Part shown: positions 367 to 39,466 of the stretch, piece by piece
Layout: every line of letters begins with the position of its first letter
Numbering within the stretch: position 1 is the stretch's first letter
DNA from: Candidatus Poribacteria bacterium
Lineage (GTDB): Bacteria; Poribacteria; WGA-4E; WGA-3G
Reading direction: 5' to 3'
NCBI GenBank assembly: GCA_963667805.1
Contig: OY764016.1
Location: 4,458,998 to 4,522,997 of the forward strand
Length of the DNA stretch: 64,000 nucleotides
The notes under the pieces: generated by a model
Told to the model about the DNA's origin: nothing
The model's input: only the letters and a program-made list of their open reading frames with translations
The model's database searches: none
Made by a program: the position numbers and the translations under genes

Positions 367-1386
367 TTATTCCTTTTTCATTTTTGCCCATATTGTAGTA
401 AGCAAGTGCGGTTGTGGTGAGACTGGCAACGCATACGCTGGATCAAACCAATCCCCCCCAGCATTCGCTTGGCGACGAGATAAACCGACAATATGCGTCA
501 GTTGTGTCTGGATGCCGTCATTCACGTTAACTTTGAAGACTTGGAACCGACCCTTAATTTCCTGTGTATAGAGAACTTCATCACCATTTGGCGATAACGC
601 TGGATACTGGGCATAGGGACCTGCTTCCTTTATAAGTTGTTTGAGACCGGAGCCGTCTCGATTGACGGTGTAGATCGTCTGCTTTGCCTTCCAAGCGTTG
701 TGCAGATCCGCATCCAAGATGGGGGGTAGCGGATGCTTGTTCCCAGTAAAGGCAAGTCTGTCTCCCGCAGCAGACCAAGAAGGATCGTATTGCCAAATCA
801 GTGCTTTCTTGGGTAGCGGTTTTTCCTGCGCTCGTGTCTGGACGTTGATAAATGTCAGTTGAGACGCGAATGGTTCGTCTACAGAGTAGGCAATTTCAGT
901 GCCATCGGGCGACCATGCGGGATCCCAGCCATACGCAATATATTCATCCTCTTGTTCCCCAAGGCGCGCAATCTGGATATCAGCATTAATACCCACCTGC
1001 CTGTTCACATAAGCGATGTGTTTGCCATCGGGCGACCATGTTGGATGGCTTCTATAAATTCTCGTTTTTCTCTTGAAGACGCGTCGAACGTTTTTTCCAT
1101 CTGGGTCCATCAGGTAAAGGTCTCGCTCCCCCCCGCGATCGGAGATAAAAAGAATCTTTTCGCCTGTAGGTGACCAGACGGCTTGCAGATCATTTCCAGG
1201 ATGTTGTGTGAGTCTCATCTGTTCGCTGCCATCTGGGTTCATGGTGTATATTTCTCTGTTTCCGTCGCGTGCAGAGGTGAACAGGATTTTCGGCGTGTTG
1301 GGTGCTTTTGCGAAAACTGAATAAACATTTGTATTCAGGACCAACACCTTAAGTAGGAAAAAGACTAACAATCTCATCGTTCCCAT
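367..1386 (-). CDS. TolB-like WD40/PD40 beta-propeller periplasmic protein
   Basis: Signal peptide MRLLVFFLLKVLVLNTNVYSVFA. Repeated WSPDG/PD40-like blades (AVWSPTGEKILF, PTWSPDGKHIAY, PAWSPDGTEIAY, ALSPNGDEVLY). Tandem paralogue of the truncated upstream gene. Confidence 0.75.
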   Translation of the reverse strand: MGTMRLLVFFLLKVLVLNTNVYSVFAKAPNTPKILFTSARDGNREIYTMNPDGSEQMRLTQHPGNDLQAVWSPTGEKILFISDRGGERDLYLMDPDGKNVRRVFKRKTRIYRSHPTWSPDGKHIAYVNRQVGINADIQIARLGEQEDEYIAYGWDPAWSPDGTEIAYSVDEPFASQLTFINVQTRAQEKPLPKKALIWQYDPSWSAAGDRLAFTGNKHPLPPILDADLHNAWKAKQTIYTVNRDGSGLKQLIKEAGPYAQYPALSPNGDEVLYTQEIKGRFQVFKVNVNDGIQTQLTHIVGLSRRQANAGGDWFDPAYALPVSPQPHLLTTIWAKMKKE

Positions 1387-11422: not shown

Positions 11423-11476
11423 AATAGAAACATTCTATCATAAAACAGAAAAATGTCTCTTTAATTCTAACGGTCA

Positions 11477-12965: not shown

Positions 12966-15755
12966 ATGTTTACAATTTTATTCCATAAGAACAAGGAGAT
13001 AGAACGAATGTTGTCAAAGAAAATGGCATTTTCGTTAACAAGTCTAATAACAATACTTGCGCTCGCTTTCGTGGTGACTCCCGCGATGGCTGGAGAGTTT
13101 GGCGTGTCGCTTTACCAGGTCCAAGACGCGGATGGTACCGACGCTACTGATACGTTAATGGATGTCAGTCATGCCGATGGGTTACAAGTATCACCTCCTG
13201 CTACGGACACGGCTATCCGAGTTACTGTTAAGTTTGATAGGGCAGTTGTCTTGGCAGCTACAAGCGTGAGCATCGGTGGTTATGATAAAGACGGAGTTTT
13301 ATTGCCAGCTGTTGCCCTCGCTGCTACAACTCCTATCGCACCCACTACAGCTGCTAAGATGATCACGCTATCGATTACCCTTGGGGCGGGTGGAGATGCC
13401 GCTGCGATGGTCAGAAAAGTCACTCTCAAGATAGCAAAAGGCATTGGTTCTGCTGATCCGTTTAACGATGATACGAGTAAAGAGTTCAAGACGGATATCC
13501 ATTTGCTTCCGGCGGATCGAGCAGGCGGACCTGATGTATGGAAGATCGCGTTAGTCGGTGAACCTTTCTCACCCATCACGACTGCTACCTTCCAAACGCA
13601 CATCCTGCTGAGTGAAGAGCCGATGGGCGGCTTTAATAAAGATCATATTGAAGTCTCTGATGCAGATGTGGCATCCGTTGTTAAGTTAGTTTCACCTATG
13701 ACCGCACCAACCGGACTCATACAGCGTGATACTACTGCAGTGCCAGGAGAGATTACACCCACGGATCGTAGCACTGCGGGTCTTGCGACTTGGCGGGATG
13801 ATAATATCCATCTCTACCTCGTCACGTTCAACACCGTGGAAGGCGAAAAAGACGTCAAGATCAAGATCAAAAACTTCGCCGGGAATGAACGTCCAACAGG
13901 TGCTCTCACACAGCAAACCTATGTCCGTGCGGCTGACAGTCAGCTTACCGAAGGCAGAGATCTTCTGACGGTCAAGACCAAACGTGCCGTTACTACAATC
14001 AAAGCGGCGGGGGTTGCGGAAACCCACTTACCACACGGCGATGCGCCTGAGATTCCTGCGGATGGGTTCTACCTTCTCGTGAGAGATGCCGGGGATTCTG
14101 GGATCATCATCTCTGGTGTAGGTGATGAAAATGACTCGACAAAGCAAACACCTGCACAGTTGAAATATAACGCTCGGGCGGGTGGTTCGGTGAACCTTGA
14201 GCAGTTCCTCGCCAATGGTGGCACGATTGACCTGACGACGACGGAAACTGGTATAGCGATGGGCGATGTTGTCATCAGTGAGATTATGTGGGGTTCAAAC
14301 CTCGCGGTGGCAGATTCATCCCTTAGTCAATGGATAGAGATTCACAATACGACTGCGAGCAAGATCGTCGTCGCTGAGAAAGAGTGGACGCTGAAGTTCT
14401 ATGGTGCGAACGAAGTGCTTCCGACGACGGGTTACATTGACCGTGTCGGGACGCGTGATGAAGCGTCAGGAACGTTCTGGTCACTTGCGGGTAAAGGTCA
14501 AAGCGGTAGGACGGATCTCGATCCGACTGGAGTAGCCGCGGCATCGAGTTTTCCGATTATCTCCATGCAGCGCGCCCGTGCTGCGGATGGCACGTATGCC
14601 GATGGGACAATGGCAAGCAATTGGAGCCAGTCCGTAGGCCCCGCTGTGAACTTCGCAGTCGGTATTGAAGGCTCACGGATCGGCACACCCGGTGCGTCCC
14701 CCGTGACGCTGCCACAACCGACACCGCCTGCTGACCCACCCGTCGTCGTGACCATTCCGGCTGCGGTCCTCGGAGACATCCTGGTTACCGAAATCATGGT
14801 TGACACCGGCAACGGGAGACTCCCGCAGTGGATCGAACTCGCGAACTTCAGTGGCAAAGAAGTCACCCTCGACGGTTGGTCTGTTGAGATCACGAACCAC
14901 GCTGACGATGCCGATGTTGAGCGTAAAGTGAGCATTGACCTCACGGGGCAGACGCTCGATGTCCGTGAAGGTGCTAACGGCACCCGCGGCGAAGCCCTCC
15001 TCTTGGCGGCTTGGGGCGGTCGAAGCTCCGGCAACCTAAGTGATCGGGTTCTCAATGTCTCCAGCCAATTGAACAAAACGGGACGGTATACCCTCCTCAG
15101 TTCGATGGGTTTCATCATCGAACTCCTCCCACCGCTTGATTCGGGCATTGTGGTGGCGAGTGACGAGGCTGGCAACCTCCGTGCCGAGGAAGCATGGGAG
15201 ATCGAGATGGACGAAACCGGTCGGAGTTCACTGATCCGTAAGTTTGCTGCGGGTGTAGCAGCGGACGGAGAGGAAGCCGATGGATGGACTCTCGCCTCCA
15301 GCACATCGCTCCTCCAGGCTCCCGCAAGCTGGTATGGCAGTGATGAAGACGCAGGAACTCCTGGTGTTATCGGTGGTGGTCCGCTACCCGTCGAACTCTC
15401 ACACTTCCGTCCCGCACGCGATAAAGCCACCGGTGCAGTCGTGATTACCTGGGCAACCCAATCTGAGCTGAACAACGCTGGATTCTTTATCAAGCGCAGT
15501 CAGCAACGCAACGGTGAGTTCAAGGTCATCAACGCAACTATGATCGCCGGTGCTGGCACCACTTCGGAGAAGCAGTTCTATACCTACACGGATACAACTG
15601 CTCAACCTAACGTCGTATACTACTACCAAATTGAAGATGTTTCCCTCGATGGGAATCGTCAGACGCTGACCCGTGGTATCCGCCTGAAAGGGCATATCGG
15701 AGCCGCCGGCAAACTTACCTCCACGTGGGGTGAATTGAAGTCGTCCAATGAGTAG
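12966..15755 (+). CDS. large secreted protein with two lamin-tail (LTD) domains and a C-terminal KLTSTWGELKS tag
   Basis: Signal peptide MAFSLTSLITILALAFVVTPAMA (likely start at the ATG at 13008). The LTD signatures are GDVVISEIMWGS...QWIEIHN and GDILVTEIMVDTGNGRLPQWIELANFSGKEVTLDGWSVEITN. A C-terminal module PVELSHFRPARDKATGAVVITWATQSELNNAGFFIKRS precedes the terminal tag. Confidence 0.7.
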   Translation: MFTILFHKNKEIERMLSKKMAFSLTSLITILALAFVVTPAMAGEFGVSLYQVQDADGTDATDTLMDVSHADGLQVSPPATDTAIRVTVKFDRAVVLAATSVSIGGYDKDGVLLPAVALAATTPIAPTTAAKMITLSITLGAGGDAAAMVRKVTLKIAKGIGSADPFNDDTSKEFKTDIHLLPADRAGGPDVWKIALVGEPFSPITTATFQTHILLSEEPMGGFNKDHIEVSDADVASVVKLVSPMTAPTGLIQRDTTAVPGEITPTDRSTAGLATWRDDNIHLYLVTFNTVEGEKDVKIKIKNFAGNERPTGALTQQTYVRAADSQLTEGRDLLTVKTKRAVTTIKAAGVAETHLPHGDAPEIPADGFYLLVRDAGDSGIIISGVGDENDSTKQTPAQLKYNARAGGSVNLEQFLANGGTIDLTTTETGIAMGDVVISEIMWGSNLAVADSSLSQWIEIHNTTASKIVVAEKEWTLKFYGANEVLPTTGYIDRVGTRDEASGTFWSLAGKGQSGRTDLDPTGVAAASSFPIISMQRARAADGTYADGTMASNWSQSVGPAVNFAVGIEGSRIGTPGASPVTLPQPTPPADPPVVVTIPAAVLGDILVTEIMVDTGNGRLPQWIELANFSGKEVTLDGWSVEITNHADDADVERKVSIDLTGQTLDVREGANGTRGEALLLAAWGGRSSGNLSDRVLNVSSQLNKTGRYTLLSSMGFIIELLPPLDSGIVVASDEAGNLRAEEAWEIEMDETGRSSLIRKFAAGVAADGEEADGWTLASSTSLLQAPASWYGSDEDAGTPGVIGGGPLPVELSHFRPARDKATGAVVITWATQSELNNAGFFIKRSQQRNGEFKVINATMIAGAGTTSEKQFYTYTDTTAQPNVVYYYQIEDVSLDGNRQTLTRGIRLKGHIGAAGKLTSTWGELKSSNE

Positions 15756-21261: not shown

Positions 21262-21362
21262 ATCGCCCGACGACTCCTGTTTCAAGTTTGAACCATAGGT
21301 GTCAATTTAAGGTTTTCGTAGGTTGGGTTGAACGATGTTAAAGTAGGAGTCCGTTAAACACA

Positions 21363-21450
21363 TTAGGGCAGCCACAAGGACTGCCCTTACATCATATTCT
21401 TTTTTCAAACAAACACAGGCGCGGTGCCCAAACCGCGCCCTTTTCCTTTT
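21363..21450. terminator. two hairpin plus T-run terminator candidates between convergent genes
   Basis: gggcagccacaaggactgccc is followed by ttacatcatattctttttt. aggcgcggtgcccaaaccgcgccc is followed by ttttcctttt. Either could serve the flanking gene on the opposite strand. Confidence 0.4.
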
Positions 21451-21483
21451 CCTTACCTAACCTATTTGTTGATAGGTGGGCGG

Positions 21484-22428
21484 TTATGCCTCTAATTGTT
21501 CTCGGAAAGCACGAAAACTTCTCGCGATCGAGGCAGCAAGGTTCAACTGCTTGAGCCGGTTGAGATCCTCAATGGCTTCAAGGAGCGGCTTGACCGCAGG
21601 GACATCCGCATTTGGGAAACGTTCGGTGAGAATCGTCAAGGTGCTTTCAATACTCGTTTGCCGTGTCCCTTGTTCTATACCTTGTTGGTATCGTTCTTCT
21701 GCCGCGGTTTCTACGAGATGTTGGTAGACTGAAGATTCTTGCATAACTGCCTCCGATAAAAATCTCCCAATCGCTTGATGGGGGTGAATCAGACCGCTCA
21801 GAACCCACTGTGATACGAGCAGATTGCTGCGAGTCTCCGTGGGTAAGGAGAGGCTCTTTGTGCGTTGGTTACACGCAATCGCCCATTCGAGGGGTGGCGT
21901 GCCAGGTGGGGGTTGCATCAACGGAGCGAAGGGCAGCAACCCTGTGTTTTCCGCCTCCAGCACAGATTGCCCCTGAAGTTCACTAAGACGGATCACTTTG
22001 TATTCCACGATGAACCGGTAGCCCGGCACTTCTTGCGAGTACCCGCCCGGATCCCGCTGTCCCGCGTTTGGACGGAGATAGATGACGTGGGAAAGGACCG
22101 GCAAACCGTATTTTTCATAACATCTACCGAGATACCCGACATTCCGGCGCACCATGTCTATAGGGGCACTGTCGCTGACCTGAAACTCAATGTGCACTAA
22201 AACGAGGACATCACCGAGCCGGACCTTGATCAGGCTATCGGTTCTCCGAACTTCCACACGCGTCAACTCACTTTCCTCAAATCCGAGGAACTGAAAATTA
22301 CTGTGGCCCAAGACTGTCCGCAAAATATCTTCTGGAAACTGATGCAGCGCATCCTTGGTCACAATATCGTAACGGTCCCGCGGGAGAGACGCAACATCTG
22401 GATCGGGCGACTGACGAATCTGAACCAT
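21484..22428 (-). CDS. Rpn/YhgA-like PD-(D/E)XK nuclease/putative transposase with DUF4351-like C-terminal domain (intact paralogue)
   Basis: The hallmark HIEFQ motif is present, followed by VIYLRPNAGQRDPG and the C-terminal QQGIEQG...LKQLNL domain. It is collinear with the IS-split copy at 10259-12070. Confidence 0.65.
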   Translation of the reverse strand: MVQIRQSPDPDVASLPRDRYDIVTKDALHQFPEDILRTVLGHSNFQFLGFEESELTRVEVRRTDSLIKVRLGDVLVLVHIEFQVSDSAPIDMVRRNVGYLGRCYEKYGLPVLSHVIYLRPNAGQRDPGGYSQEVPGYRFIVEYKVIRLSELQGQSVLEAENTGLLPFAPLMQPPPGTPPLEWAIACNQRTKSLSLPTETRSNLLVSQWVLSGLIHPHQAIGRFLSEAVMQESSVYQHLVETAAEERYQQGIEQGTRQTSIESTLTILTERFPNADVPAVKPLLEAIEDLNRLKQLNLAASIARSFRAFREQLEA

Positions 22429-22532: not shown

Positions 22533-22651
22533 ATGGCTGTCAGCAGTCGGCTGTCGGTTAAGAGGCTTTTTGAAGGGTCTTAAGAGCACCCGCTGATGGA
22601 AACCGAAAGTCGATGGCCAATTTGCTATGTCAGATTAGCGGAGGAAAATGC

Positions 22652-23104
22652 GTGAAATCAATCGATTCTAAACAAGCAGGATTAACGTCCATACAGATCT
22701 TAGTTGTCGTCATCGTTCTGGGAATTGTTGCGGCTGTCCTTTTGGCGCCTCGGTTACTCGGACAAGCCGGTCGGGCTTTACAGGCACAAGCCGCGGAGGA
22801 CATTGAAACATTGGGTATCGCTCTTGATAGATACGCCAAGGATAATGGCGATTATCCCTCGACTGAACAGGGCTTAAAGGCACTTTGGGAGATACCTGAA
22901 GCACCCCCAATACCTATAAACTGGGTAGAACCGTATATTCAAATCCCAATCACCGAAGATCCGTGGGGGAATCCCTATGTCTATGTTCGTCCCGGTAACC
23001 ACGACCGATACGGATACGATCTCATCTCTTTCGGCAGTGATGGTGTTGAAGGCGGGACAGGTGAAGCGGAGGATGTCGTGAGTTGGATCCGGCGTGATGA
23101 GTAA
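22652..23104 (+). CDS. gspG: type II secretion major pseudopilin GspG-like protein (orphan)
   Basis: Prepilin leader VKSIDSKQAG|LTSIQILVVVIVLGIVAAVLL, then ...GDYPSTEQGLKAL...DPWGNPYVYVRPGNHDRYGYDLISFGSDGVEGGTGEAEDV, the GspG signature. Position +5 is Gln instead of the near-invariant Glu. No other T2SS or T4P genes lie nearby. Confidence 0.65.
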   Translation: MKSIDSKQAGLTSIQILVVVIVLGIVAAVLLAPRLLGQAGRALQAQAAEDIETLGIALDRYAKDNGDYPSTEQGLKALWEIPEAPPIPINWVEPYIQIPITEDPWGNPYVYVRPGNHDRYGYDLISFGSDGVEGGTGEAEDVVSWIRRDE

Positions 23105-28770: not shown

Positions 28771-29445
28771 ATGAGAAAGCTGAATATCCAATGGGTTTAC
28801 GCGTGCATTTGCTTGTGCCTGATGCTGATTGGGCACACCGCACAGGCGATTCGTTATGAGTTTGATAGTGACAAAGAGATTGCGGATTGGGAATTGGGAC
28901 CGCAGGCAACCGCGGAGGTGAAAGACGGTATGCTTGAGCTTACCGTTGCCGGTGGACAGAATTCAGGTATCTACTTTGGGGAAGAAAACTGGACGGATTA
29001 CCGAATGGAAGTCAAGGCACGAAAAATTAATGGACCCTATTTCCATCTGTTCGTTCGGACGCAGGAACCCGCTGTAGATTTCTATTTCATGGAAATCAGT
29101 TACAACTCGCATACAACTTCGGTTTTCATGTTTAGCGGTGGAGCCGCGAATGAGATTACCGGTGGTCCGCGCCCACAACGTCCCGATTCAAAGGATACAA
29201 AAGGCGGCGATGCGTATACCATCGTCTTTGAAGTAGAAGGGCTAACCCTCAGGACCTACATTGATGGAAAACTGATGGTTGAAACCGAGGATAAAACCTA
29301 CGATAAAGGGCGTCCCGGTTTAGGTGGCAGGGATTCAACCGTTGCGTATGAATATGTTGAGATTAATGGTGAGGGCGTCCCGCCAACGGCAGTTGAACCT
29401 GCGGACAAATTAGCTACGTTGTGGGGTGAATTAAAAAGTAAATAA
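28771..29445 (+). CDS. secreted DUF1080/LamG-like jelly-roll domain protein with C-terminal KLATLWGELKSK tag
   Basis: Signal peptide MRKLNIQWVYACICLCLMLIGHTAQA. DGMLELT..GGQNSGIYFGEENWTDYRMEVKARK fits the DUF1080 (3-keto-disaccharide-hydrolase-like) pattern. Confidence 0.5.
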   Translation: MRKLNIQWVYACICLCLMLIGHTAQAIRYEFDSDKEIADWELGPQATAEVKDGMLELTVAGGQNSGIYFGEENWTDYRMEVKARKINGPYFHLFVRTQEPAVDFYFMEISYNSHTTSVFMFSGGAANEITGGPRPQRPDSKDTKGGDAYTIVFEVEGLTLRTYIDGKLMVETEDKTYDKGRPGLGGRDSTVAYEYVEINGEGVPPTAVEPADKLATLWGELKSK

Positions 29446-29493
29446 ACGTGAGGCGGGTCGGCGTGCCCGCCTACAATATATAGGAGGACAACA

Positions 29494-30342
29494 GTGAAAA
29501 GACTGGCTATTCTTTTTCTCACGGTTTTAATTTCTACGCAGGTTGAAGCCAATTACAATTTTGCGCTTCACACCGATTCACACCCTTGGGCGCGTGAAGA
29601 CCCAAAAGGGGCTCAAGAGGAAATTGATGCCTTGATTAAGATTATTGATAACAAGGTAAACCTGACGGCTTTTGATCCCAAGGATATTAACGGATTAGGA
29701 GAGTGGGTCAAGGCACACACAGCAGGGGGTGGGAATACCCTGATTCTGACCGGTATCACGCCTTCAACGATTTATCCGATCAATAACGGAAAACCTGATG
29801 GCTCGCCGCTTGAAGAGTTCCTTGATGCTGGCAACACGATTTTCAATACGGGTGAATACACCTTTTACACATCGGAAGGCCCCGATGAAACGAACGGACA
29901 AGCTGCACTACCCAATGTCATTGACGTTCCAAAAGCGTTCGTGTGGATGAATAGAGGTCCAGACGCTTGGGCAGCCAATCCCGTTGAAATGACCCCGACA
30001 CAGGAAGGTAAAGACCTTATACCGAGCCTGAAAAAGTATAATACGTCTTATCCGTTCCATCTTGATGATTACGACAGAAGCCCCTGGGAGTTAGAGATCG
30101 CGCTTGCTGAGAATGATGATGCAGATCCGCGGGTTGACCCGGCTGTGCTATATAACAAAGACACCGGTGGCCGCCTCGGGATCTTCGTCCAGACCTATGT
30201 GGGGGATGTGCCGCATCCGGGTGTCTCATGGGGCAATATTATGGGTGAATTCATCGTTAACTATTACCTACCAGAGGTTTTATCGGTTGAACCGATCGAT
30301 AAATTAACGACAACTTGGGGAAAACTGAAATCCTCAAAATAG
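29494..30342 (+). CDS. secreted hypothetical protein with C-terminal KLTTTWGKLKSSK tag
   Basis: Signal peptide MKRLAILFLTVLISTQVEA. No recognisable catalytic domain. Confidence 0.5.
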   Translation: MKRLAILFLTVLISTQVEANYNFALHTDSHPWAREDPKGAQEEIDALIKIIDNKVNLTAFDPKDINGLGEWVKAHTAGGGNTLILTGITPSTIYPINNGKPDGSPLEEFLDAGNTIFNTGEYTFYTSEGPDETNGQAALPNVIDVPKAFVWMNRGPDAWAANPVEMTPTQEGKDLIPSLKKYNTSYPFHLDDYDRSPWELEIALAENDDADPRVDPAVLYNKDTGGRLGIFVQTYVGDVPHPGVSWGNIMGEFIVNYYLPEVLSVEPIDKLTTTWGKLKSSK

Positions 30343-30422
30343 CCATTAGATAATTGGAGGAAAAGTGTGAGGGTGGCACTACAGATGCGCATGTCTGTGT
30401 GCCGCTTTCACACGCAATAAGG

Positions 30423-31193
30423 ATGAAAAAATTAACATATCTTTTAGCGGTTGTGGCGTTCCTAATGAGTTGTGTACTCGCGCATGCAGTCGATCCAGAT
30501 AAGGATTTACTTATCTATCTACCTTTTGATGAAGGTCAAGGTAACAAAGCGGAAGATGTTGGGCCGAATGGATTCGTGGGTGATATAAAGAACGCAAAAT
30601 GGGTAGAGGGTGTCTCAGGTCAGGCACTCCAATTTAAGGGGGGGAGTGTCAACTTCGACCCACTCAAAATTGATCAACCCAAGGAAATGACGATCGAATT
30701 CTGGTTTAAACCGGACGAGAAAATTGACAGTGGTGCCCGAATTGATCTGCTCTATCGTTTGCAAGGTGGTGGACGACCTCATGTTACGTTCAACCGTGGT
30801 GGCATTTTATTCGGGTACTACTTTGCGACGCAAGGTGTGGAATTACCGATACACACGACTTATGATGCGTTTGAATCGGAATGGTATTACTTCGTTGGGA
30901 CACAGAGCAAACAGACGGGATGGATGTATATTAACGGGGAGCTTGATGCTGAGACGGATGCCGGTGGTGATGCCCGCATGGATTTCGGTACCCAAGGGAT
31001 GTGCATCGCAGCGAGTCAGGGCAACGCTAACTTCTTCAACGGCATGATTGACGAATTTAAGATGTGGAGTGTCGCCTTCACTGCTGATGATGTTAAAGAT
31101 AGTATGGAAAAAACCCTTGCTGTGCAAGCGGAGGGTAAGTTGACCACGACGTGGGGTAAAATTAAGTCTGGTTCTGATGGAATCAGGTTTTAA
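30423..31193 (+). CDS. secreted concanavalin-A-like lectin/LamG_3 domain protein with C-terminal KLTTTWGKIKSGSDGIRF tag
   Basis: Start at the ATG at 30423 (MKKLTYLLAVVAFLMSCVLAHA, AAGGA SD) rather than the track start. GQALQFKGGSVNFDPL...TIEFWFKP...WYYFVGTQ...MYINGEL...IDEFKMWSVAFTADDV matches the LamG_3 pattern. Confidence 0.55.
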   Translation: MKKLTYLLAVVAFLMSCVLAHAVDPDKDLLIYLPFDEGQGNKAEDVGPNGFVGDIKNAKWVEGVSGQALQFKGGSVNFDPLKIDQPKEMTIEFWFKPDEKIDSGARIDLLYRLQGGGRPHVTFNRGGILFGYYFATQGVELPIHTTYDAFESEWYYFVGTQSKQTGWMYINGELDAETDAGGDARMDFGTQGMCIAASQGNANFFNGMIDEFKMWSVAFTADDVKDSMEKTLAVQAEGKLTTTWGKIKSGSDGIRF

Positions 31194-31211: not shown

Positions 31212-33770
31212 CTACCGAATCACTGAAATATGGAGCGGACGGGTTGCTGAGCGACCCTCCGCATCCACGCACGTTAGCACATGTTTTCCCCTGGCAGGCG
31301 TAAGCCAGTATTGCTCTCCCGCATTTCCTTGAAAAATTAACTCACCATCCAAAAACCAGAACAGTTCCTGCGTCCGACTGGAAGCCGAGGCGGTCAACCG
31401 AATCTTTTGGTTTTCCAGTGGCACCCCCTCCCGAATGTAATAGGTAGTGTCTTCTGCTGGGGATAAAATAATCGGGACGTTCCCTGCAATTGTGCCGGTA
31501 CACAAGGGATTATGCGCCGGTAGGACAGACACAGCAAAACCATTCTCTGCCAACCACGTCGCCGCATCGGCGGGCCACTCCTCAAATATTTTTTTATAGG
31601 GTCCAGTTGACCCATCATTATTTCCCCAACAATGGGAACAGAGACTGTATCCTGTCGATTCGTCAACATAGATAGGTTTATGAATCGCGCAAACCGCTAC
31701 AGACGAAACACCGGGTATATACACGTCCTCCTTATGGGTGGGACAGTGCGGCGAAACCGGTGCGCCACTCAGGGTACACACTTGTCGTGTTTTCAATTGT
31801 TCTGGTTTGGTAAACCAGTGGTGTGTGTCTTGTCCTGTCAAGGCAGTGAAGAGCGCGAATAGGATCGGAGTTGCTGCATCTGTGCCGCTCAGCATGGGTG
31901 TCCCCTTTCCATCGAAATTACCGAGCCATACACCGATTGTGAAAGTCGGGGAGTACCCGATGCACCATGCATCTCGGTGTCCATAAGACGTCCCAGTCTT
32001 CCACGCAATCTTTGGTAGGTTCATTGTCCTTTCAAACGCTTCTGGATTTTTAACCGTGTTGGTAGGGAGTTGTGAGTTTGTTAACATCTCGGTTATGATG
32101 AAGCTGGTCTCTTGTCGGAGTAAACGTTTGGAATAGTTTTCAGTTTTCGGTTGATGAGGCTTTGTCAATTGATAAGGTCCAAATTCTCCCATATTTGCCA
32201 GTCCAGCGTAAAGTGTTGTCAATTCGAGTAGATTCACTTCGCATCCGCCGAGAACCATAGAGAGTCCGTATTTCTGGGCAGGCGCGAGTGTAGAGATACC
32301 GGCTTTTTTGAGGAAGGCGTGTAGTGTCCTATTTTTCAAGCGTGCATTAAGATTAACGGCGGGGACATTGAGAGAACGTGCGAGGGCTTGACGGGCAGTG
32401 ACATAACCGTTATATTTCCCATCATAGTTCACCGGTGTATAGTCAGCATAGGTAACGGGGACATCGAATAACAGTGTTTCGGGTGTAATCAAGCCCTCTT
32501 CCATTGCCAGGGCATAGACGAAGGGTTTGAGTGCAGAACCCGGAGAACGCGGGGCGAGCGTCCCATTTATTTGTCCTAATGCCTTCCGGTCGAAAAAGTC
32601 GTGGGAACCTACCATTGCTAAGATATGGCGGTTTTGGGTATCCATGACGATGATTGCGCCTGTGCTGGTGCTATGAGACCCGCGCAAACTCGGCTTACGC
32701 GCTGCGTCCACCAGATATTCGTTAAGGATGCGTGTCGCGATATCCTGAACCTTGGCGTCTATTGTCGTGTGTATCCTGCCATTTGTTATCCGTGAGTGGG
32801 AGGGGTTTCTAACCCCGGATTTCTTCCGGTTTTCTTTAATCAATAGGCGTGAGAGGTGTGGTGCTTTAAATGGAAGTGAATAGCGTTTATGCGGAATCGG
32901 TTCTTGGACTGCCTCCTGCCACTGCTGTTCGGAAATTTGTCGGCGTGCCAGGAGACGATTCAGGACTTTTTCGCGTGCCTTTCGGGCGTTTTCTGGGAAC
33001 CTGTCAGGGCGTAAACGTTCTGGAGCGTTCGGAATGGCGGCGAGAAGTGCGGCTTCCCCAAGACTAAGCGTATGCTGGGGTTTGTTGAAGTAGAACCGCG
33101 AGGCTGCCGCTGTTCCGACTATATTCCCACCATACGGGAGCATGTTAAAATAAAACGTTAAAATCTCTGATTTGGAATAAGCGTGTTCAAGTTGAAAGGC
33201 ACGGAACATCTCAATGAATTTGTTCGGAATGTTACGCGCCTTAGGTTCCATCAATCGGGCGAGTTGCATGGTGATGGTTGAACCCCCGCGGACAACTTCA
33301 CCCGCTTTCAAATTGTCATAGATGGCTGTTGCAATCGATACAGGATTGATACCGTAATGATAGTAGAACCACCTATCTTCTGATGTGAGTATTGCTTGGT
33401 GGAGTAAGGGGGAATAGGTATCGGGTGTTCCGTTTGTCTCGTGGTGAGAATCTTGGGTTAAGGAGGGGACTGATTTATTGAAGATCTGTTGTGATTGATG
33501 ACTAAATCGCCACATGCCATCGTCGGCTAAAAATGCTCGAAGCCACTCGCCGTTTCTGTCCAACACAATCTGAGATACAGGGGGATGGAGACGTGCTTTG
33601 GGTAGCGGGAAACACCAGTTTGCGAGCATAAAGAGGATGACAATCAACAAGAAAGATAGCATTACAGTCATCAGTCCTCCGAAGAGGGGGTGTCGGTTAT
33701 AAGAGGGGCTTGTTAGACGAAGACCTCTTAACTGAAAATTGAAAACTGAAAACTGAAAACTATTCATCAT
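31212..33770 (-). CDS. pbpC: penicillin-binding protein 1C (PbpC-type bifunctional transglycosylase/transpeptidase)
   Basis: GT51 motifs are EDRWFYYHYGINP, GGSTITMQLARL and KSEILTFYFNMLPYGGNIVG. A transpeptidase domain and the PBP1C C-terminal domain follow. Its start overlaps the upstream A2M gene stop by 4 nt (ATGA). Confidence 0.8.
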   Translation of the reverse strand: MMNSFQFSVFNFQLRGLRLTSPSYNRHPLFGGLMTVMLSFLLIVILFMLANWCFPLPKARLHPPVSQIVLDRNGEWLRAFLADDGMWRFSHQSQQIFNKSVPSLTQDSHHETNGTPDTYSPLLHQAILTSEDRWFYYHYGINPVSIATAIYDNLKAGEVVRGGSTITMQLARLMEPKARNIPNKFIEMFRAFQLEHAYSKSEILTFYFNMLPYGGNIVGTAAASRFYFNKPQHTLSLGEAALLAAIPNAPERLRPDRFPENARKAREKVLNRLLARRQISEQQWQEAVQEPIPHKRYSLPFKAPHLSRLLIKENRKKSGVRNPSHSRITNGRIHTTIDAKVQDIATRILNEYLVDAARKPSLRGSHSTSTGAIIVMDTQNRHILAMVGSHDFFDRKALGQINGTLAPRSPGSALKPFVYALAMEEGLITPETLLFDVPVTYADYTPVNYDGKYNGYVTARQALARSLNVPAVNLNARLKNRTLHAFLKKAGISTLAPAQKYGLSMVLGGCEVNLLELTTLYAGLANMGEFGPYQLTKPHQPKTENYSKRLLRQETSFIITEMLTNSQLPTNTVKNPEAFERTMNLPKIAWKTGTSYGHRDAWCIGYSPTFTIGVWLGNFDGKGTPMLSGTDAATPILFALFTALTGQDTHHWFTKPEQLKTRQVCTLSGAPVSPHCPTHKEDVYIPGVSSVAVCAIHKPIYVDESTGYSLCSHCWGNNDGSTGPYKKIFEEWPADAATWLAENGFAVSVLPAHNPLCTGTIAGNVPIILSPAEDTTYYIREGVPLENQKIRLTASASSRTQELFWFLDGELIFQGNAGEQYWLTPARGKHVLTCVDAEGRSATRPLHISVIR
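32795..32828. repeat. REP family-B copy embedded in frame inside pbpC (encodes KSGVRNPSH)
   Basis: gtgggaggggtttctaaccccggatttcttcc lies within the open reading frame, in the TG-TP linker region. Confidence 0.6.
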
Positions 33771-36700
33771 TCTGGGACCACTGTAATGCGCATGCTACCC
33801 GTTACAGCGGATTTTGTTGTATCGTACATCGCCTCGGCGGCAATGGGAGGTAAGGTAAATTCGCCTTGTGTGACGGCGCGTAGCGCGTAATAGAATTTAC
33901 GTTCGCGTTGGCGGGGAAACGTGCCGAAGAAGATTAGCCTGTCATCGCGAATATCAATATAATCCGGTTTGAAATCTTGTGTTTTCAACCATGAAATACC
34001 TGCTCGGGATTCTAATCTCGGATTCTCAATTTCGAATCCCGTAGGCAGCATATCTACGACGACAACATTTTCAAGGTTGGCGGTGAGAGCTTTAACGTTT
34101 ATCTCAGCGATGATGAGTTCTCCGTGTGCGAAGGGGCCTGTCCGTTCTTCACCGTCTTTGTTAAAATAGCGTCTGCGGACCTGTAATTCGTGCTCGTATT
34201 CTTCGATGAAGGAATCGCGTTGGATGCCAAACGCGCTCCAATAATAGTAGCAACTGCCCTCACCTTTAACAGAAAGTTGGACACGCATCCCATCCCATAT
34301 TTTATCGGTATAACGGGTCTCCGTTGCGTCGAAGTCGGCGAAATGTTCGCCATTAAGCGTTAGGGTACCCGTGTAATTTCTATCCATCTGTTTCTTCAGA
34401 ATCTTGCCGAGTGCCAGAAACGCAAAGGCGTTTTCTTGTGTTGTTGCCCATCGGTTCCCTTCAGCTGCTGCAGCACTTAGGTTTTGGACGAGCATTGGGA
34501 TTGACGGGTGGTTTTTGTTAACTTCAGCAAGAACGTCTAACATGATGGCTTGGGCTCGAATAGGGGAATCAAGCGTTCCGCCTGTCTCGCGATGTCCGTT
34601 GCCTTTATTAAAATTGGGTGATACTGACACGGGTAGCATTGACAGGGCGGTTTCCAGTTCGCCGCTGAGAGCGAACGCACCTGCGAGTTGGAAATGGCTA
34701 TAATCGCTGAGTCCGCTCAAACCTCTGTTTTTCAGATAGTGCATCGTGCCTCGGTCGGGATGTCCAGCAGCAGCTAAGACGTAAGCGGCATAGGTTGCTA
34801 ATGAAATCTTCTTTCTTATCTCTTGGGCTTCGTTTTCTGTGTTTGGCGAGAATTTCGCTTCCGTTCTTAGACCTTCCAGCATTGCGTCATAAACCCGGTC
34901 TGAGACCTCGTAGCCTGCCTTTCGTGCCTCGACGAGGAAGTGAGACGCATAGATACTGCTCCATGGGTTCACGTAAGTGCCGCCGGGCCAATAAGCGAAA
35001 CGATCGTCTGACTTCAACATACTTTCGATTTTTGTGATACCCGATGTGATGTAGTGATCCACCGAGTCTTCTGCTGCCAGCATCGGTTCAACACTTCGTG
35101 CCAAACCGCTGAAGTAAAGCAGCGGAAAAACCTTGCTCGTTGTTTGTTCGAGACAGCCGTGCGGGTAACGTATAAGGTAACGGAGACTGTCCGCAAACCT
35201 AATATTGGGGAACGGAGATAACGTGAGGCTAAACTCTGACGAATCGGGTATTAAATTTGACGGGAAAATAAAATCAGCAGGTTCACCTGCGCGGACCACG
35301 CCCTGTCCGGTTTGTGTAACAGGTGGAGCCACGGAACGCAGTGGGATTTTAACGTCTAATTGTGTTGTTTGTGTCTTACCGTGCGCCGAAAGATTGAAGT
35401 TGGCTTCCCCGATTGCGTCCTGAACGAGAAGATCGAAAAAAACTTGTGCTTCTGCGCCTGCGTCGACCTTCTGGTTTATACTGAGTTTGTCTGCTGTATA
35501 TTGGCTATCGGAAACCATCGGAGACTGTTGGTTTTCAGCAGAGCGGTGCTCTTGTTGATCACTGGCTATTGATGGATCGTTATTGGCAGCCATTGCTGAA
35601 AGGAGTTGCACGTCGCCTGATGCTTGCAATTCGACCGTAAATTCCTCTTCCGCGCCCGTGCCGTTAAAGAGGGTAACCGGGACCCGAACCTTATCACCAC
35701 CCGCAAGGAATCGTGGAAATGTCGGGGTTAAGACAATAGGTTCGCGGACAGTCAGATGTGCTTCTGTGCCACCGTAATCGCCACCCGCGAATGCGACTGC
35801 CATCAACCTGAGTGTCCCATTGAACTGCGGGATTTTGAATTGAACAGTACCGCGACCATTTCCATCGGTTTTCACGAATCCTGACCAGAGTGAAATCGGT
35901 TTTACGCGCCGGATGCTGCCTGTGCTCAATCGCTTCCGCAGTTCCGCCTGTCGTGTCGTGGCTGCATCTCCCCCCGTACTTGAGTTGTCGATAACATTTG
36001 CGATTTCGGGGAGGATCCCACTATACACGTCGAAGGAGCGCGTCTTAAGCCCACGCTGTCTATAGAAGTAAGCGTGTGGGTTGGGTGTTTTGAAATCGGT
36101 TAACACGAGGATCCCTTCATCAACGGCTGCAATACAGACATCATATTTTTGCCAAGAACGTCTACCGTGAACTTGGAACGCTATAGTCACCTCGCTATTC
36201 GGTAGGACTGTCGCTGCGCTTTCTATATTCTTTTCTGGACTGGCGAGTGGAATCTTCTCCATATCACCAGCATCGTTTCTCTGATTGAGCGACATTTCTA
36301 TCGAAAGTTGTCTCCGTGTTTCATCTATTTTGAGTGGAATTACCCCAAACGCGCGCGCCGGGAGCGGCGACTTCTTAGCAGTTGTAGGAGGGGTTTGTAA
36401 CCCCGATTCCATCGGGATGGCGCGCGTCAACGTCGCAGAGAGATACACATTCGGTCTATAGGCATAACGGATTGGGATTGATAAAGTTGTGGTGTTATTT
36501 TTCATCACGACTGTCCGGTAACTCAACACCTTTTCCCGTTCGATCGTCAGCAGGAGTGTGCCCGGAAACGGTGCCTTAACATATAGTTTTGCTGTTTGTC
36601 CGGGACGGTAAGCAGGCTTATTAAGCGTCAGTTCCAGTCGAGTGGGATGTTCCATAGAAACTGGAATGTTTCCCCATCCGCTGACATAAAATCCGAGTTC

Positions 36701-39466
36701 TGCTGTCGCTGTCGAGGCGATGTCCTCAAGACGGACGCGGTATTCACCATAATCTGAGGGCGTTAAGGTCACTGTCTGGACTGTTTCTGCTGAAGTTAGT
36801 GTGACCGTTTCCACTTCTGTTGTTTGAGGTTCCGAGACGTACGCATAGCGCCCGGCACCGTTCTGACGGAGTATCGTGTTCCAGTGGACTTTGTGGAGAC
36901 TGAGTTTGAGGTCTCTTCCGGGGGCAACTGCCATTGTATCGTTAACAGCAATGTAATCGAATCGGAGCGGTTGGTTGATTTTTACATCCCCGGTCTTTGT
37001 GCGTCGGAGTCCAACGTAATGCGAATAGGGATGGATCACAACGCTGTGAGAAGCGGTGACGGCTCTGCCGCCGACTTCGCTAACGGTCGCTGTCAGCGTG
37101 CCGTTTAGCAGAGAAGGTGCTTTCAGCGTTTCAGGGATCGTGAATTGATAGGACGCTTTACCCGCTGCATCGGTTTTAACTTCTCCCAATCCAATTCTTT
37201 GTTTTTCAAAATTGGAACGCGCATTCCCGAAGACAAACGAGTTCCACTGTGTTGCACTTGCGTTGGCTGCTGAATTTACAAACGAGACTGCTTCCAATTC
37301 GCAGGAAGCTTCCACCGTGCGCCCTACTGCTGGGGGACCGAATAGATTGATAGCGGACACTTCAATACCGAGTTCCTCTCCAAGTTTATAAGTGGATTTA
37401 TCCGCTGTTACAGCGACTTTTATCCGATCAGGCATAAATTCTTCGACCTGAAATTGGACTCTTCCAACGACCCGATCAGCGATCCGCATCTTGGCAATAT
37501 AATTACCAGTCAAGGCGTAGGTAGGGATAGGAATTTCTACATCGCAGGCACCGCTTTTGTTTGTTTGTAGTCTTAACTCCCGCATAATTCTGCCGTTTGG
37601 GGAGAGCACTTCAATCTTGGCAGGGAGCGGTTGTGGTGTTACCTGCTTTGGTCCTCGAACAATTCCAGCAAGTTGGACGGTTTCACCCGGACGATAGACC
37701 CCTCTGCTTGTGTAGAGGAACGCTTCATAACCTTTTTGCAGGTAGGCAGAACCGGCAATGTTGAAATCTGCTGTTGCGATTTCGTGTCGGTCGAGTTGAA
37801 CGAAAGCGAGATCGTCCCGTTTCGCGGCGGTGATCATAAACGGTGTGAAGTCTTCAGTCTTCTCCACAACGTCTGTGAACTGGATGTATCCTGCCCAGTT
37901 GGTTGTCCCATCGAGGAGTGTTTGGTTATTATCGCTGATGAGTTTAACGCGCGCCGCTGGGACTGCCGAACCCGTCGCGAGTGATTTCACCCAAACGTAT
38001 AGGTTATCTCCTAAGCGTTTGGCAGTGATACCCAAGTCTGTGATGAGCACCCATTGATGCGCACTATCCCACTCCCGCTCTGCGTTTCGCGCCACGACCT
38101 TAAAGATGCCGACATGTTCGTCTGAGAGATATTCTTCCAAGGAGATAGGTGTTGTTACCTCTTCGTTCAATTGGGACGGAATATCGAGTTCTTCTGTCCG
38201 AATCGGTTTACCTAAGTTTCTGCTCCAGCGACTCCATCGTTCTAATTTTGATATGTAGATAAGGTTGTTCGCGAAAACTTTTTCGATATTGAGTTTCACG
38301 CTTTTAACATTGATTGTTGCGAGACCTAAATTCAGATGCCCCTTTCTCGCGAGGAAGAAACCGTCGCCAAGGAATCGAAGTTGGGGTCGGATATCTGGGA
38401 TTCTGAGGCGCGTCCTGTAATCTTGTTTTAAAACGGCATCGTTTCGGGCTGTGAGACCGCGTCGGATCTTTAGCGTGTAGGTCGTGCGCCGTTTGAAGTT
38501 GCCGTGAATCTGCACGTTTCGATAGTCGGATGTCACTTGATGTGCTACTGCGGGGGTCAGTTCTATATACGGCTTGATGGCATCGCTGAGTACCGGCGCG
38601 CTGAAGCTCACCGAGATATACGGCGTTCCATCACTTTCCCAAACGTCAGCGTATGTCACACCGAGTGTGCCTCTCCCGCGGAGTATGACCGGTGTAACAC
38701 TCGCTTTTTCTAAACCAATTTTCCCACCCGTACATTTGAACCCTTTTTCAATCTTAATCTTTATCTCTTGATCTGCGTTGCCGCGTTTTATACGCTGCGT
38801 CTCGAATGTTACTGTCCGCGCTGTTGCTGTGTTGGTTTGAATCTGGTATGGAATTTCTGTTTCGTCGTCCAGTTCAATAGAGAGGTGTGCCTTTAAATCG
38901 ACAATGGTTACAGGATAATTAAATGCTATCGTCCCAAAACCTGTTGCGTGTTCGCGGGCATCATTGGCGGTAAATTCCATACGTGCCTGCTGCACTGCAA
39001 AAGGATCCGTAGCAAATTTAAACTCTTTTTGTCCAGTGAGTAGAAATGTCTCAGATGGGTTGAGTTCTGGGGTGAGTTGAACAGTATATTGTGCGGAGGG
39101 TGCTAAGGGTGCGTCTAAAAAGAAACCGACTCTGTCCCGCGCGATCCAACGGGCAGCGCCTTGGACAGCTGGTGTGAACCGAAGTGCCTCTGCTGGAACT
39201 TCGGTCCCGACACGCGACTTATCAATAACCGCTTCCGAGAACGTAATCGACAAATCAACCCATTGTGGAACCTCACCTTGTGGGCTGAAGGTCTTGACAC
39301 TGTATCGTGTCCGAGCACGCATGGGCCCCTGTACAATATAGACGATACAGGCAGCAAGGAGTAAGGACATGAGTCCGATCACACCGATTAAGCTTTTTAA
39401 GAGCAAATTTCGACTTCCGGGTTTCGCCGAAAGATTTGTGGAGAGTTTGGCTGCCATCAGACGCAC
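33767..39466 (-). CDS. bacterial alpha-2-macroglobulin family protein with intact thioester motif (YfhM-like)
   Basis: 1899 aa, N-terminal membrane anchor, MG-domain repeats. The thioester CLEQ lies in YLIRYPHGCLEQTTSKVF. It is cotranscribed with pbpC as in the classic yfhM-pbpC pair. Confidence 0.85.
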   Translation of the reverse strand: MRLMAAKLSTNLSAKPGSRNLLLKSLIGVIGLMSLLLAACIVYIVQGPMRARTRYSVKTFSPQGEVPQWVDLSITFSEAVIDKSRVGTEVPAEALRFTPAVQGAARWIARDRVGFFLDAPLAPSAQYTVQLTPELNPSETFLLTGQKEFKFATDPFAVQQARMEFTANDAREHATGFGTIAFNYPVTIVDLKAHLSIELDDETEIPYQIQTNTATARTVTFETQRIKRGNADQEIKIKIEKGFKCTGGKIGLEKASVTPVILRGRGTLGVTYADVWESDGTPYISVSFSAPVLSDAIKPYIELTPAVAHQVTSDYRNVQIHGNFKRRTTYTLKIRRGLTARNDAVLKQDYRTRLRIPDIRPQLRFLGDGFFLARKGHLNLGLATINVKSVKLNIEKVFANNLIYISKLERWSRWSRNLGKPIRTEELDIPSQLNEEVTTPISLEEYLSDEHVGIFKVVARNAEREWDSAHQWVLITDLGITAKRLGDNLYVWVKSLATGSAVPAARVKLISDNNQTLLDGTTNWAGYIQFTDVVEKTEDFTPFMITAAKRDDLAFVQLDRHEIATADFNIAGSAYLQKGYEAFLYTSRGVYRPGETVQLAGIVRGPKQVTPQPLPAKIEVLSPNGRIMRELRLQTNKSGACDVEIPIPTYALTGNYIAKMRIADRVVGRVQFQVEEFMPDRIKVAVTADKSTYKLGEELGIEVSAINLFGPPAVGRTVEASCELEAVSFVNSAANASATQWNSFVFGNARSNFEKQRIGLGEVKTDAAGKASYQFTIPETLKAPSLLNGTLTATVSEVGGRAVTASHSVVIHPYSHYVGLRRTKTGDVKINQPLRFDYIAVNDTMAVAPGRDLKLSLHKVHWNTILRQNGAGRYAYVSEPQTTEVETVTLTSAETVQTVTLTPSDYGEYRVRLEDIASTATAELGFYVSGWGNIPVSMEHPTRLELTLNKPAYRPGQTAKLYVKAPFPGTLLLTIEREKVLSYRTVVMKNNTTTLSIPIRYAYRPNVYLSATLTRAIPMESGLQTPPTTAKKSPLPARAFGVIPLKIDETRRQLSIEMSLNQRNDAGDMEKIPLASPEKNIESAATVLPNSEVTIAFQVHGRRSWQKYDVCIAAVDEGILVLTDFKTPNPHAYFYRQRGLKTRSFDVYSGILPEIANVIDNSSTGGDAATTRQAELRKRLSTGSIRRVKPISLWSGFVKTDGNGRGTVQFKIPQFNGTLRLMAVAFAGGDYGGTEAHLTVREPIVLTPTFPRFLAGGDKVRVPVTLFNGTGAEEEFTVELQASGDVQLLSAMAANNDPSIASDQQEHRSAENQQSPMVSDSQYTADKLSINQKVDAGAEAQVFFDLLVQDAIGEANFNLSAHGKTQTTQLDVKIPLRSVAPPVTQTGQGVVRAGEPADFIFPSNLIPDSSEFSLTLSPFPNIRFADSLRYLIRYPHGCLEQTTSKVFPLLYFSGLARSVEPMLAAEDSVDHYITSGITKIESMLKSDDRFAYWPGGTYVNPWSSIYASHFLVEARKAGYEVSDRVYDAMLEGLRTEAKFSPNTENEAQEIRKKISLATYAAYVLAAAGHPDRGTMHYLKNRGLSGLSDYSHFQLAGAFALSGELETALSMLPVSVSPNFNKGNGHRETGGTLDSPIRAQAIMLDVLAEVNKNHPSIPMLVQNLSAAAAEGNRWATTQENAFAFLALGKILKKQMDRNYTGTLTLNGEHFADFDATETRYTDKIWDGMRVQLSVKGEGSCYYYWSAFGIQRDSFIEEYEHELQVRRRYFNKDGEERTGPFAHGELIIAEINVKALTANLENVVVVDMLPTGFEIENPRLESRAGISWLKTQDFKPDYIDIRDDRLIFFGTFPRQRERKFYYALRAVTQGEFTLPPIAAEAMYDTTKSAVTGSMRITVVPE
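36384..36411. repeat. REP family-B copy embedded in frame inside the A2M gene (encodes ESGLQTPPT)
   Basis: gtaggaggggtttgtaaccccgattcc. The protein reads ...IPMESGLQTPPTTAKK.... Confidence 0.55.

Follow-up and report, generated by a model that had tools for sequence, protein, structure and literature searches.

Many otherwise unrelated secreted proteins of Poribacteria end in the same short peptide. This C-terminal tag, for which we propose the name KLTTTWG tail, spans about 16 residues (V-E-P-x-G-K-L-T-T-T-W-G-K-L-K) and is present in a 64,000-nucleotide stretch of a Candidatus Poribacteria bacterium genome (assembly GCA_963667805.1, contig OY764016.1, positions 4,458,998 to 4,522,997), hereafter the window. 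In its terminal position, its unrelated cargo, its signal-peptide carriers, its lineage restriction and its many copies, the tail belongs to the generic class of modular C-terminal sorting or anchoring tags. The evidence tips modestly toward a more specific reading, in which the tail is a phylum-specific peptide recognized after Sec export for surface sorting or docking.

Scanning the 64-kb window in six frames for K-[LIVM]-[TAS]-[TSA]-[TSLA]-W-G-x-[LIVM]-K returned four places only, each 2-8 residues ahead of a stop codon. The back-translated degenerate DNA pattern likewise had 4 matches in the window, against 0.00 expected from 100 dinucleotide-preserving shuffles. These are the ends of the four open reading frames (ORFs) named in an earlier note on this DNA; the ORFs exist, end as quoted there, and are the only places where the six-frame scan finds the motif. 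All four tagged ORFs are real, but a fifth, ORF 367-1386(-), had been missed; with its divergent tail counted, the window holds five (Table 1). The description of the carriers as otherwise unrelated holds by sequence, although the DUF1080 and LamG proteins share the concanavalin-A-like superfamily. Tandem arrangement of tagged genes is frequent, as at 28771-31193 of the window.

The position of the motif was followed through ~1 Mb of Poribacteria DNA surrounding the listed genome matches described below, six-frame translated and containing 852 called ORFs (hereafter the loci). All 128 matches to the strict motif and all 185 to the broad motif lay within 11 residues of a stop codon. The minimal core W-[GAS]-x-[LIVM]-[KR] was terminal 189 times and internal 19 times in the 852 ORFs, where uniform placement would put 4.7% at the terminus. 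A profile built from diverse tails, run over a library of 1.84 billion representative proteins, matched 497 representative clusters (50% identity clusters) at E<=1e-3; among the matches inspected, the core fell within 14 residues of the C-terminus in 144 of 145 new sequences. In the loci and among these matches, the C-terminal enrichment for which the earlier note had proposed a check is thus borne out. Most of the inspected sequences are giant LTD (lamin-tail domain)-type proteins of 900-2200 residues, which end in …YYYQIQDVSLDG…HLRGNVSAAGKLTTTWGELKALQ; relatives of this size with such an end number in the hundreds. A homologue search with a 41-residue tail alignment recovered 36 short gene fragments, every one a tail, and a search with the LTD protein's C-terminal domain recovered short Poribacteria-like fragments only.

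Homologues also argue that the tail is not the start of some longer known C-terminal domain (CTD). The family of ORF 29494-30342 comprises 74 homologue clusters at 90% identity, and the few with source names are all from Poribacteria; a search for contigs that encode exactly this protein gave no match. Nearly all full-length homologues end in the tail, down to ~30-40% identity; the exceptions are a few divergent or truncated members that have no tail (e.g. P0036 and P0070). No Pfam model matches the tail, in full proteins or for the tail alone at E<=10, and NCBIfam (release 20, June 2026) gave no match for full proteins at E<=0.1 or isolated tails at E<=10. Nor is the tail described in the literature searched (the motif; Poribacteria combined with sorting, exosortase and C-terminal motifs), in agreement with the earlier suspicion that this is not a described sorting signal.

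The motif had been summarized as an 11-residue consensus. That motif is real, but the conserved unit is longer and reaches upstream to the V-E-P region: x-[LFT]-[ASP]-V-[EDS]-[PA]-x-[GD]-K-L-[AT]-T-T-W-[GA]-[KE]-[LI]-K, followed by 1-11 variable, often basic residues. The residues K, L, W and K are invariant across unrelated families, and V(-5) and T-T are near-invariant. In a 45-sequence alignment of the ORF 29494-30342 family, which diverges to 29% identity, W275 is one of just 13 invariant columns. Divergent variants such as GKAATTWGSLKKAYR, NQATLWGRMKLER and KKFTMWGWLKQINR are on record, and Glu occupies motif position +7 in 27 of 133 cases. The distance from motif to stop is 1-11 residues in the loci, with a mode of 3. 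What follows the motif is rich in R (101) and K (54), within a segment just 1-11 residues long that is often not basic, and the last residue itself varies (R in 45 tails, K in 35, Q in 22, F in 18, others in the rest). The full set of synonymous codons is in use at every motif position, and all three stop codons occur after the tail. Selection therefore acts at the protein level, and the tail is not a DNA repeat.

The degenerate DNA pattern was also run against one genome per species for 185,579 GTDB species (596 Gb). By our own estimate from the ~39 bits of the pattern, which is not a tool output, about 2 matches would be expected by chance; at least 120 were found. Among the matches listed (120), about 111 bear a Poribacteria label (Candidatus or uncultured), 8 are unlabelled 'uncultured bacterium' metagenome-assembled genomes (MAGs), and one is a 3.7-kb contig from a 'Deltaproteobacteria' bin. 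Among these listed matches the tail is restricted to one phylum, Poribacteria, and it is found in more than 100 independent assemblies, closed chromosomes included. Its carriers include the MAGs NP41 and UWMA-0232 and a Guaymas-basin bin, which we take, from their names alone, to be non-sponge. The idea of a sponge-specific host-interaction epitope is weakened by tails in these seemingly not sponge-derived genomes. Tails resembling SWGxIKxxYR may also exist in other candidate phyla. Two IMG/VR contigs, UViG_3300021791_000527 (L121, ~13661-13690) and UViG_3300048642_000110 (L123, ~6386-6415), also encode tagged LamG-type proteins of ~315 amino acids (aa) with a signal peptide and the end …KLKLTTTWGEVKK. 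The two contigs are classed as viral; this may be an error for Poribacteria fragments, or phage or prophage genes may have taken over the tag of their host.

The carriers bear export signals. A hydrophobic, signal-peptidase-I-type Sec signal was found at the N-terminus of 134 of the 146 full-length tagged ORFs, the others being mostly start-calling artefacts; just 4 of the 146 have a lipobox-like site. The tag is accordingly not one of cytoplasmic proteins, save for one dubious exception, the fused ORF L092 discussed below. With signal and tail removed, the carrier cores fall into 25 BLAST clusters, the largest of which is LamG (87 members). Other cores recognized by Pfam are DUF1080, CBM9-like, Kelch and PD40 propellers, FGE-sulfatase and LTD, and more than 10 clusters have no Pfam match. 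At least five different folds carry the tail, GATase-like and Fn3-like among them. Within the window, ORF 28771-29445 is a 3keto-disac_hyd/DUF1080 protein (Pfam PF06439, E=1.5e-9) with orthologues in 10 loci, tagged in 9 of them. ORF 30423-31193 matches Laminin_G_3 (PF13385, E=5e-20), and LamG is the commonest tagged family: its cluster in the loci contains 102 ORFs, 90 of them tagged. The longer extension of this ORF, with its final F, is kept in the orthologues of loci L017 and L043. ORF 29494-30342 has no Pfam family match. The divergent-tail ORF 367-1386(-) falls in a 22-member PD40 cluster from the loci, most members of which end in tail variants (e.g. LLTTTWGDVKSEDRK, NQATLWGRMKLER), and Pfam PD40 was matched on its cluster relatives.

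AlphaFold2 models of two domains, ORF 29494-30342 (built with the 45-sequence alignment) and the last 132 aa of ORF 12966-15755, place the tail outside the folded cargo. The first model is a GATase1/flavodoxin-like α/β domain with a mean pLDDT (predicted local-distance difference test score) of 85.9, in which tail residues 267-275 score <50; Foldseek matched it to GH164 C-terminal and GATase domains. In the second, the β-sandwich scores >90 and the tail 49-65, and the top fold match is the Fn3-like 3mpc. Because the tail scores low beside confidently modelled domains, we take it not to be part of either fold and to hang on a flexible linker. Measured against shuffles, LAVEAQGKLTTTWGKLK ranks in the top 1% for β-type periodicity, which, together with the x-[GD] turn preceding K, suggests that the peptide forms a β-hairpin or extended strand. 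Its helical hydrophobic moment, μH(100°) 0.34-0.39, is no better than that of shuffles (22-29% equally high), and its mean hydrophobicity is negative. No stretch resembling a transmembrane helix occurs in the last 30 residues of the 146 tagged proteins (15-residue Kyte-Doolittle mean: median 0.27, maximum 1.48).

Table 1. Tagged ORFs of the window and their C-terminal tags (positions are those of the window)
Feature	Coordinates	Strand	Description
Tagged ORF 1	28771..29445	+	224 aa; signal peptide MRKLNIQWVYACICLCLMLIGHTAQA; 3-keto-disaccharide hydrolase/DUF1080 domain; end …ADKLATLWGELKSK
Tag of ORF 1	29389..29442	+	A-V-E-P-A-D-K-L-A-T-L-W-G-E-L-K-S-K; 10-residue motif 29407-29436
Tagged ORF 2	29494..30342	+	282 aa; GTG start; signal peptide MKRLAILFLTVLISTQVEA; GATase1/flavodoxin-like fold; end …IDKLTTTWGKLKSSK
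Tag of ORF 2	30283..30339	+	S-V-E-P-I-D-K-L-T-T-T-W-G-K-L-K-S-S-K; motif 30301-30330
Tagged ORF 3	30423..31193	+	256 aa from ATG; signal peptide MKKLTYLLAVVAFLMSCVLAHA; Laminin_G_3 (LamG); end …EGKLTTTWGKIKSGSDGIRF
Tag of ORF 3	31119..31190	+	A-V-Q-A-E-G-K-L-T-T-T-W-G-K-I-K then SGSDGIRF; motif 31137-31166
Tagged ORF 4	12966..15755	+	929 aa; LTD (lamin-tail domain, PF00932); signal peptide …MAFSLTSLITILALAFVVTPAMA; C-terminal Fn3-like β-sandwich; end …AGKLTSTWGELKSSNE
Tag of ORF 4	15693..15752	+	H-I-G-A-A-G-K-L-T-S-T-W-G-E-L-K-S-S-N-E; motif 15711-15740
Tagged ORF 5	367..1386	-	339 aa; signal peptide; PD40-type β-propeller repeats; ends …VSPQPHLLTTIWAKMKKE / …ALPVSPQPHLLTTIWAKMKKE
Divergent tag of ORF 5	370..423	-	V-S-P-Q-P-H-L-L-T-T-I-W-A-K-M-K-K-E

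We read the tail as a modular tag because it is terminal and modular, sits on Sec substrates, conserves residue identity, is restricted to a phylum and is present in many copies. A carrier would cross the inner membrane via Sec, where signal peptidase I would take off its N-terminal signal peptide. The C-terminal peptide …[LF]-A-V-E-P-x-G-K-L-T-T-T-W-G-K-L-K and its short basic end would then dangle on a flexible linker outside the folded cargo, where it could be bound as an extended β-strand or β-hairpin by one dedicated receptor or enzyme that is specific to Poribacteria and whose gene lies elsewhere. This machinery would move the cargo over the outer membrane, retain it on the cell surface, or both. 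Surface display fits the cargo, which consists mainly of lectin-like and carbohydrate-binding-module-like domains, β-propellers and giant LTD/Fn3 adhesin-like proteins. We infer the dedicated machinery that would read the tail, the destination of its cargo, and the fate of the tail, which would be either cleaved (e.g. near V-E-P) or retained. The candidate protein-sorting signal of the earlier note therefore stands as a real tag: it is enriched at C-termini, does not open any longer CTD already described and, L092 apart, is not carried by cytoplasmic proteins. As a sorting signal it remains a candidate.

Several observations weigh against a sorting role. When the 852 neighbouring ORFs (~1 Mb) were clustered, no partner resembling a sortase, protease or transporter recurred, and neither a sortase nor an exosortase nor a rhomboid gene is present in the window; for sortases and exosortases this is what had been noted from the window before. 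AlphaFold places a short weak helix, not a strand, over W-G-x-L-K-S. In addition, one tagged ORF has a clearly cytoplasmic N-terminus, the sole such case: the 624-aa ORF of L092 (CAZOAL010000043.1) begins as an NtrC-like response regulator, σ54 AAA+ domain included, and continues in frame into the tagged C-terminal part of an α/β-hydrolase-like protein (…VVQPHGKLATTWGEMKRGR). It is probably a gene fusion, a pseudogene or an assembly artefact. The untagged neighbours that do recur are PhyH, Gfo/Idh/MocA-like, methyltransferase, TPR, LarA-like, FG-GAP/ASPIC, PAP2 and DUF6785 proteins and a pair formed by α2-macroglobulin (A2M) and PBP1C. As candidates for tail machinery these were set aside, since they look metabolic or general and suggest general synteny. 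The window does hold FtsY, a type II secretion system (T2SS) GspG-like pseudopilin, a TolC-like OEP, extracytoplasmic function (ECF) sigma factors and the A2M and PBP1C pair.

It is possible, although we would stop short of calling it probable, that the tail marks a new Poribacteria pathway of export or surface attachment, one that uses a soluble C-terminal label of ~16 residues, likely a β-hairpin, and machinery unrelated to sortases, exosortases and the T9SS (type IX secretion system). If so, that machinery might also account for the orphan T9SS-type CTD proteins of T9SS-less Poribacteria, and the tail would label a large share of the surface proteome shown to the sponge host. As a sorting or anchoring tag with neither a transmembrane helix nor a folded domain, the tail would have an unprecedented minimal architecture and possibly represents a new architectural class. 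Among uncultivated sponge symbionts, Poribacteria count as one of the most abundant groups, and we know of no account of the way in which they present proteins to the host matrix. The tail, which is easy to search for, defines a large exported set of lectin-like, carbohydrate-binding, propeller and giant adhesin-like proteins (at least 497 clusters). It thus offers an in-silico catalogue of the probable surface proteome and a handle for finding the cognate machinery. A curated hidden Markov model (HMM) would be justified, as annotation now calls such proteins 'hypothetical' or 'LamG domain'.

The explanation that comes nearest to post-Sec sorting is a docking peptide, uncleaved and with no transport role. 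Such a dockerin-like or β-strand-augmentation ligand would join lectin-like modules and giant adhesins non-covalently to a common scaffold, an S-layer or an outer-membrane protein. This proposal overlaps the anchoring half of the sorting reading. It draws on the cargo, in which flexibly linked single-domain binding modules (220-370 aa) predominate, and on the peptide itself, in which the β periodicity and the conservation of both faces of the putative strand (T-T-T, W, K) are as for a groove-buried ligand and the variable extension of 1-11 aa indicates that the free carboxylate is not read. However, the ~1 Mb neighbourhoods yielded no candidate for a scaffold that has repeated receptor modules, the giant LTD proteins are themselves tagged and hence are not obvious receptors, and a simple ligand would not need placement within 11 residues of the end. 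We consider docking without transport rather unlikely.

Alternatively, the tail could be a proteolysis or quality-control tag that lets a protease govern maturation or turnover of exported proteins, either a cytoplasmic one or a PDZ-type C-terminal processing enzyme of the periplasm (Prc/CtpA-like). Degrons and processing at the C-terminus are both established mechanisms, and a terminal, strongly conserved peptide that is unstructured in models would suit them. PDZ or tail-specific recognition, however, needs the last 3-4 residues in a fixed register, whereas the tails vary in their final residue and have the motif at a distance of 1-11 residues from it. Since an extension of this kind implies that the free carboxylate is not read, it argues against a PDZ or tail-specific protease, and equally against the β-signal of outer-membrane proteins (OMPs) considered below. 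Moreover, Prc prefers non-polar ends and the tails are polar or basic, and a single degron common to hundreds of lectin-like proteins is hard to explain. On these grounds a proteolysis tag seems distinctly unlikely.

Very unlikely, in our judgement, is a membrane- or polymer-binding tail, a Lys/Trp-rich end that sticks non-specifically to anionic membrane, lipopolysaccharide or exopolysaccharide. The C-terminal amphipathic helix of E. coli PBP5 is the model for such a tether, and the basic residues, the invariant Trp, the short AlphaFold helix over W-G-x-L-K-S and the i, i+4, i+7 spacing of L(+1), W(+5) and L(+8) are all in its favour. Against this, the helical moment (μH ~0.35) is within the range of shuffles and hydrophobicity is negative, so that the tail falls short of a PBP5-type helix; Glu is frequent at +7 (27/133); and the conserved T-T, G and V(-5) are unexplained by generic amphipathicity. 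Amphipathic tails usually keep their pattern, not residue identity, over unrelated proteins, and here K, L, W and K are invariant.

The idea that the tail is no functional tag is almost certainly wrong. On that view it would be a DNA-level repeat, a boundary left by recombination or by a cassette, a product of faulty assembly, or a last strand that simply belongs to one fold. Tagged genes are often tandem, which would suit this view, but the tail uses all synonymous codons and all three stops, recurs in >100 independent assemblies, is carried by >=5 folds and is left unpacked by AlphaFold, and the codon data and fold diversity already refute it. Two further candidates were rejected. Poribacteria have microcompartments (PMC3909097), and a microcompartment encapsulation peptide is ruled out by the Sec signal peptides, the lectin-like cargo and a helical amphipathicity not above that of shuffles. 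Eukaryote-type terminal signals (KDEL, PTS1) are ruled out by the variable extreme terminus.

Other genes of the window include the A2M and PBP1C pair. The PBP1C-like transglycosylase/transpeptidase at 31212-33770(-), assigned by eye from its translation, adjoins a 1899-aa bacterial α2-macroglobulin at 33767-39466(-) that Pfam confirms. We take these neighbours (31212-39466) to be the known conserved pair; it is syntenic with a LamG-tagged gene in ~10 Poribacteria loci. Two PhyH (phytanoyl-CoA dioxygenase) genes lie at 5668-6876(+) and 7075-7977(-). Among the untagged neighbours of tagged genes, PhyH-like ORFs occur most often (21 in 18 loci), an abundance that fits the known PhyH expansion in Poribacteria. 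Mobile-element-like genes, at 10591-12070(-) and 20314-22428, flank the pair formed by the tagged LTD gene and the T9SS-CTD gene described below. They include a DDE_3 transposase fragment (10591-11190), a 315-aa ORF with a C-terminal EEQRLRQEEQ repeat (20314-21261), and two paralogous ORFs (11477-12070 and 21484-22428) that share 'VHLEFQ…YLRPNAG' motifs and look Rpn/PD-(D/E)XK transposase-like by eye; ORF 11477-12070 has no Pfam match. The GspG-type pseudopilin at 22613-23104(+) (PF08334, E=1e-32) is isolated, with no further T2SS genes nearby.

Several known C-terminal signals invite comparison with the KLTTTWG tail. Like PEP-CTERM, LPXTG, GlyGly-CTERM and MYXO-CTERM, it is a short extreme C-terminal homology on unrelated signal-peptide proteins, present in many copies and lineage-restricted. 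Its V-E-P is a faint echo of the V-P-E-P of PEP-CTERM, and the residues at its very end are often, though not always, basic. Tripartite CTERM signals, as set out in PMC11980579 and PMC1569441, consist of a signature motif, a transmembrane helix and a basic cluster. In contrast, the tail has no hydrophobic segment and no NCBIfam CTERM match (e.g. TIGR02595), and no cognate sortase, exosortase or rhombosortase is present in the window or the ~1 Mb neighbourhoods. The analogy to PEP-CTERM, LPXTG and GlyGly-CTERM drawn in the earlier note thus fails structurally for want of a transmembrane helix.

The same note had likened the tail to the CTD of T9SS cargo. According to PMC11285876, the T9SS CTD is an Ig-like 3+4 β-sandwich of seven strands, and its last strand is essential to the cargo yet tolerant of short extensions. 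The tail, too, is C-terminal, sits on Sec-exported proteins of a Gram-negative lineage and tolerates 1-11 extra residues. Yet it spans ~16-25 residues, is unfolded in the AlphaFold models, where nothing like a folded CTD is seen, and has no HMM similarity to PF18962/TIGR04183, so the likeness does not carry over to structure. T9SS-type CTDs are present in Poribacteria, for which no T9SS structural genes have been reported (PMC3909097). One such protein, a 1355-aa secreted product, is encoded at 15982-20049(+), directly downstream of the tagged LTD gene; it has Big_1, LDL-receptor-class-B/YncE-like propeller and dockerin/EF-hand-like segments and a T9SS type-A CTD (TIGR04183 E=1e-6; FlgD_ig). 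Its detection indicates that the T9SS CTD models work in this genome. None of the 4 ORFs with T9SS-like CTDs in the loci, a small sample, is tagged. The KLTTTWG tail is a second C-terminal element in Poribacteria, distinct from the T9SS-type CTD.

Three further systems share fewer features with the tail. The OMP β-signal, which is read by BamA on β-barrels, ends in F, Y or W, usually Phe. Both it and the tail are short, β-prone, extreme C-terminal peptides in diderms, but only 29 of 185 tails end in F, Y or W, most ending in R, K or Q, and the carriers are soluble globular proteins, not β-barrels. A 411-aa protein of the window with no Pfam match (39764-40999(-)) has a signal peptide, a CxxCH haem motif and the end …ILMSRFWF; given this OMP-type aromatic end, the ordinary β-signal of the organism differs from the tail. 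A dockerin (PF00404) folds into a module of ~60 residues in which the Ca-binding loops are duplicated. The tail is likewise a C-terminal appendage common to carbohydrate-active and carbohydrate-binding modules and could assemble them on a scaffold, but it is far shorter and without a Ca-binding loop motif, and no cohesin-like partner was found. Type I secretion signals occupy ~50 uncleaved C-terminal residues of proteins that have no N-terminal signal peptide and often have RTX repeats, unlike the carriers described here, of which 134 of 146 have a Sec-type signal and none gave RTX/HlyA-like Pfam matches. The tail belongs to none of these families; by analogy with them, it probably works in a similar way to known C-terminal sorting signals.

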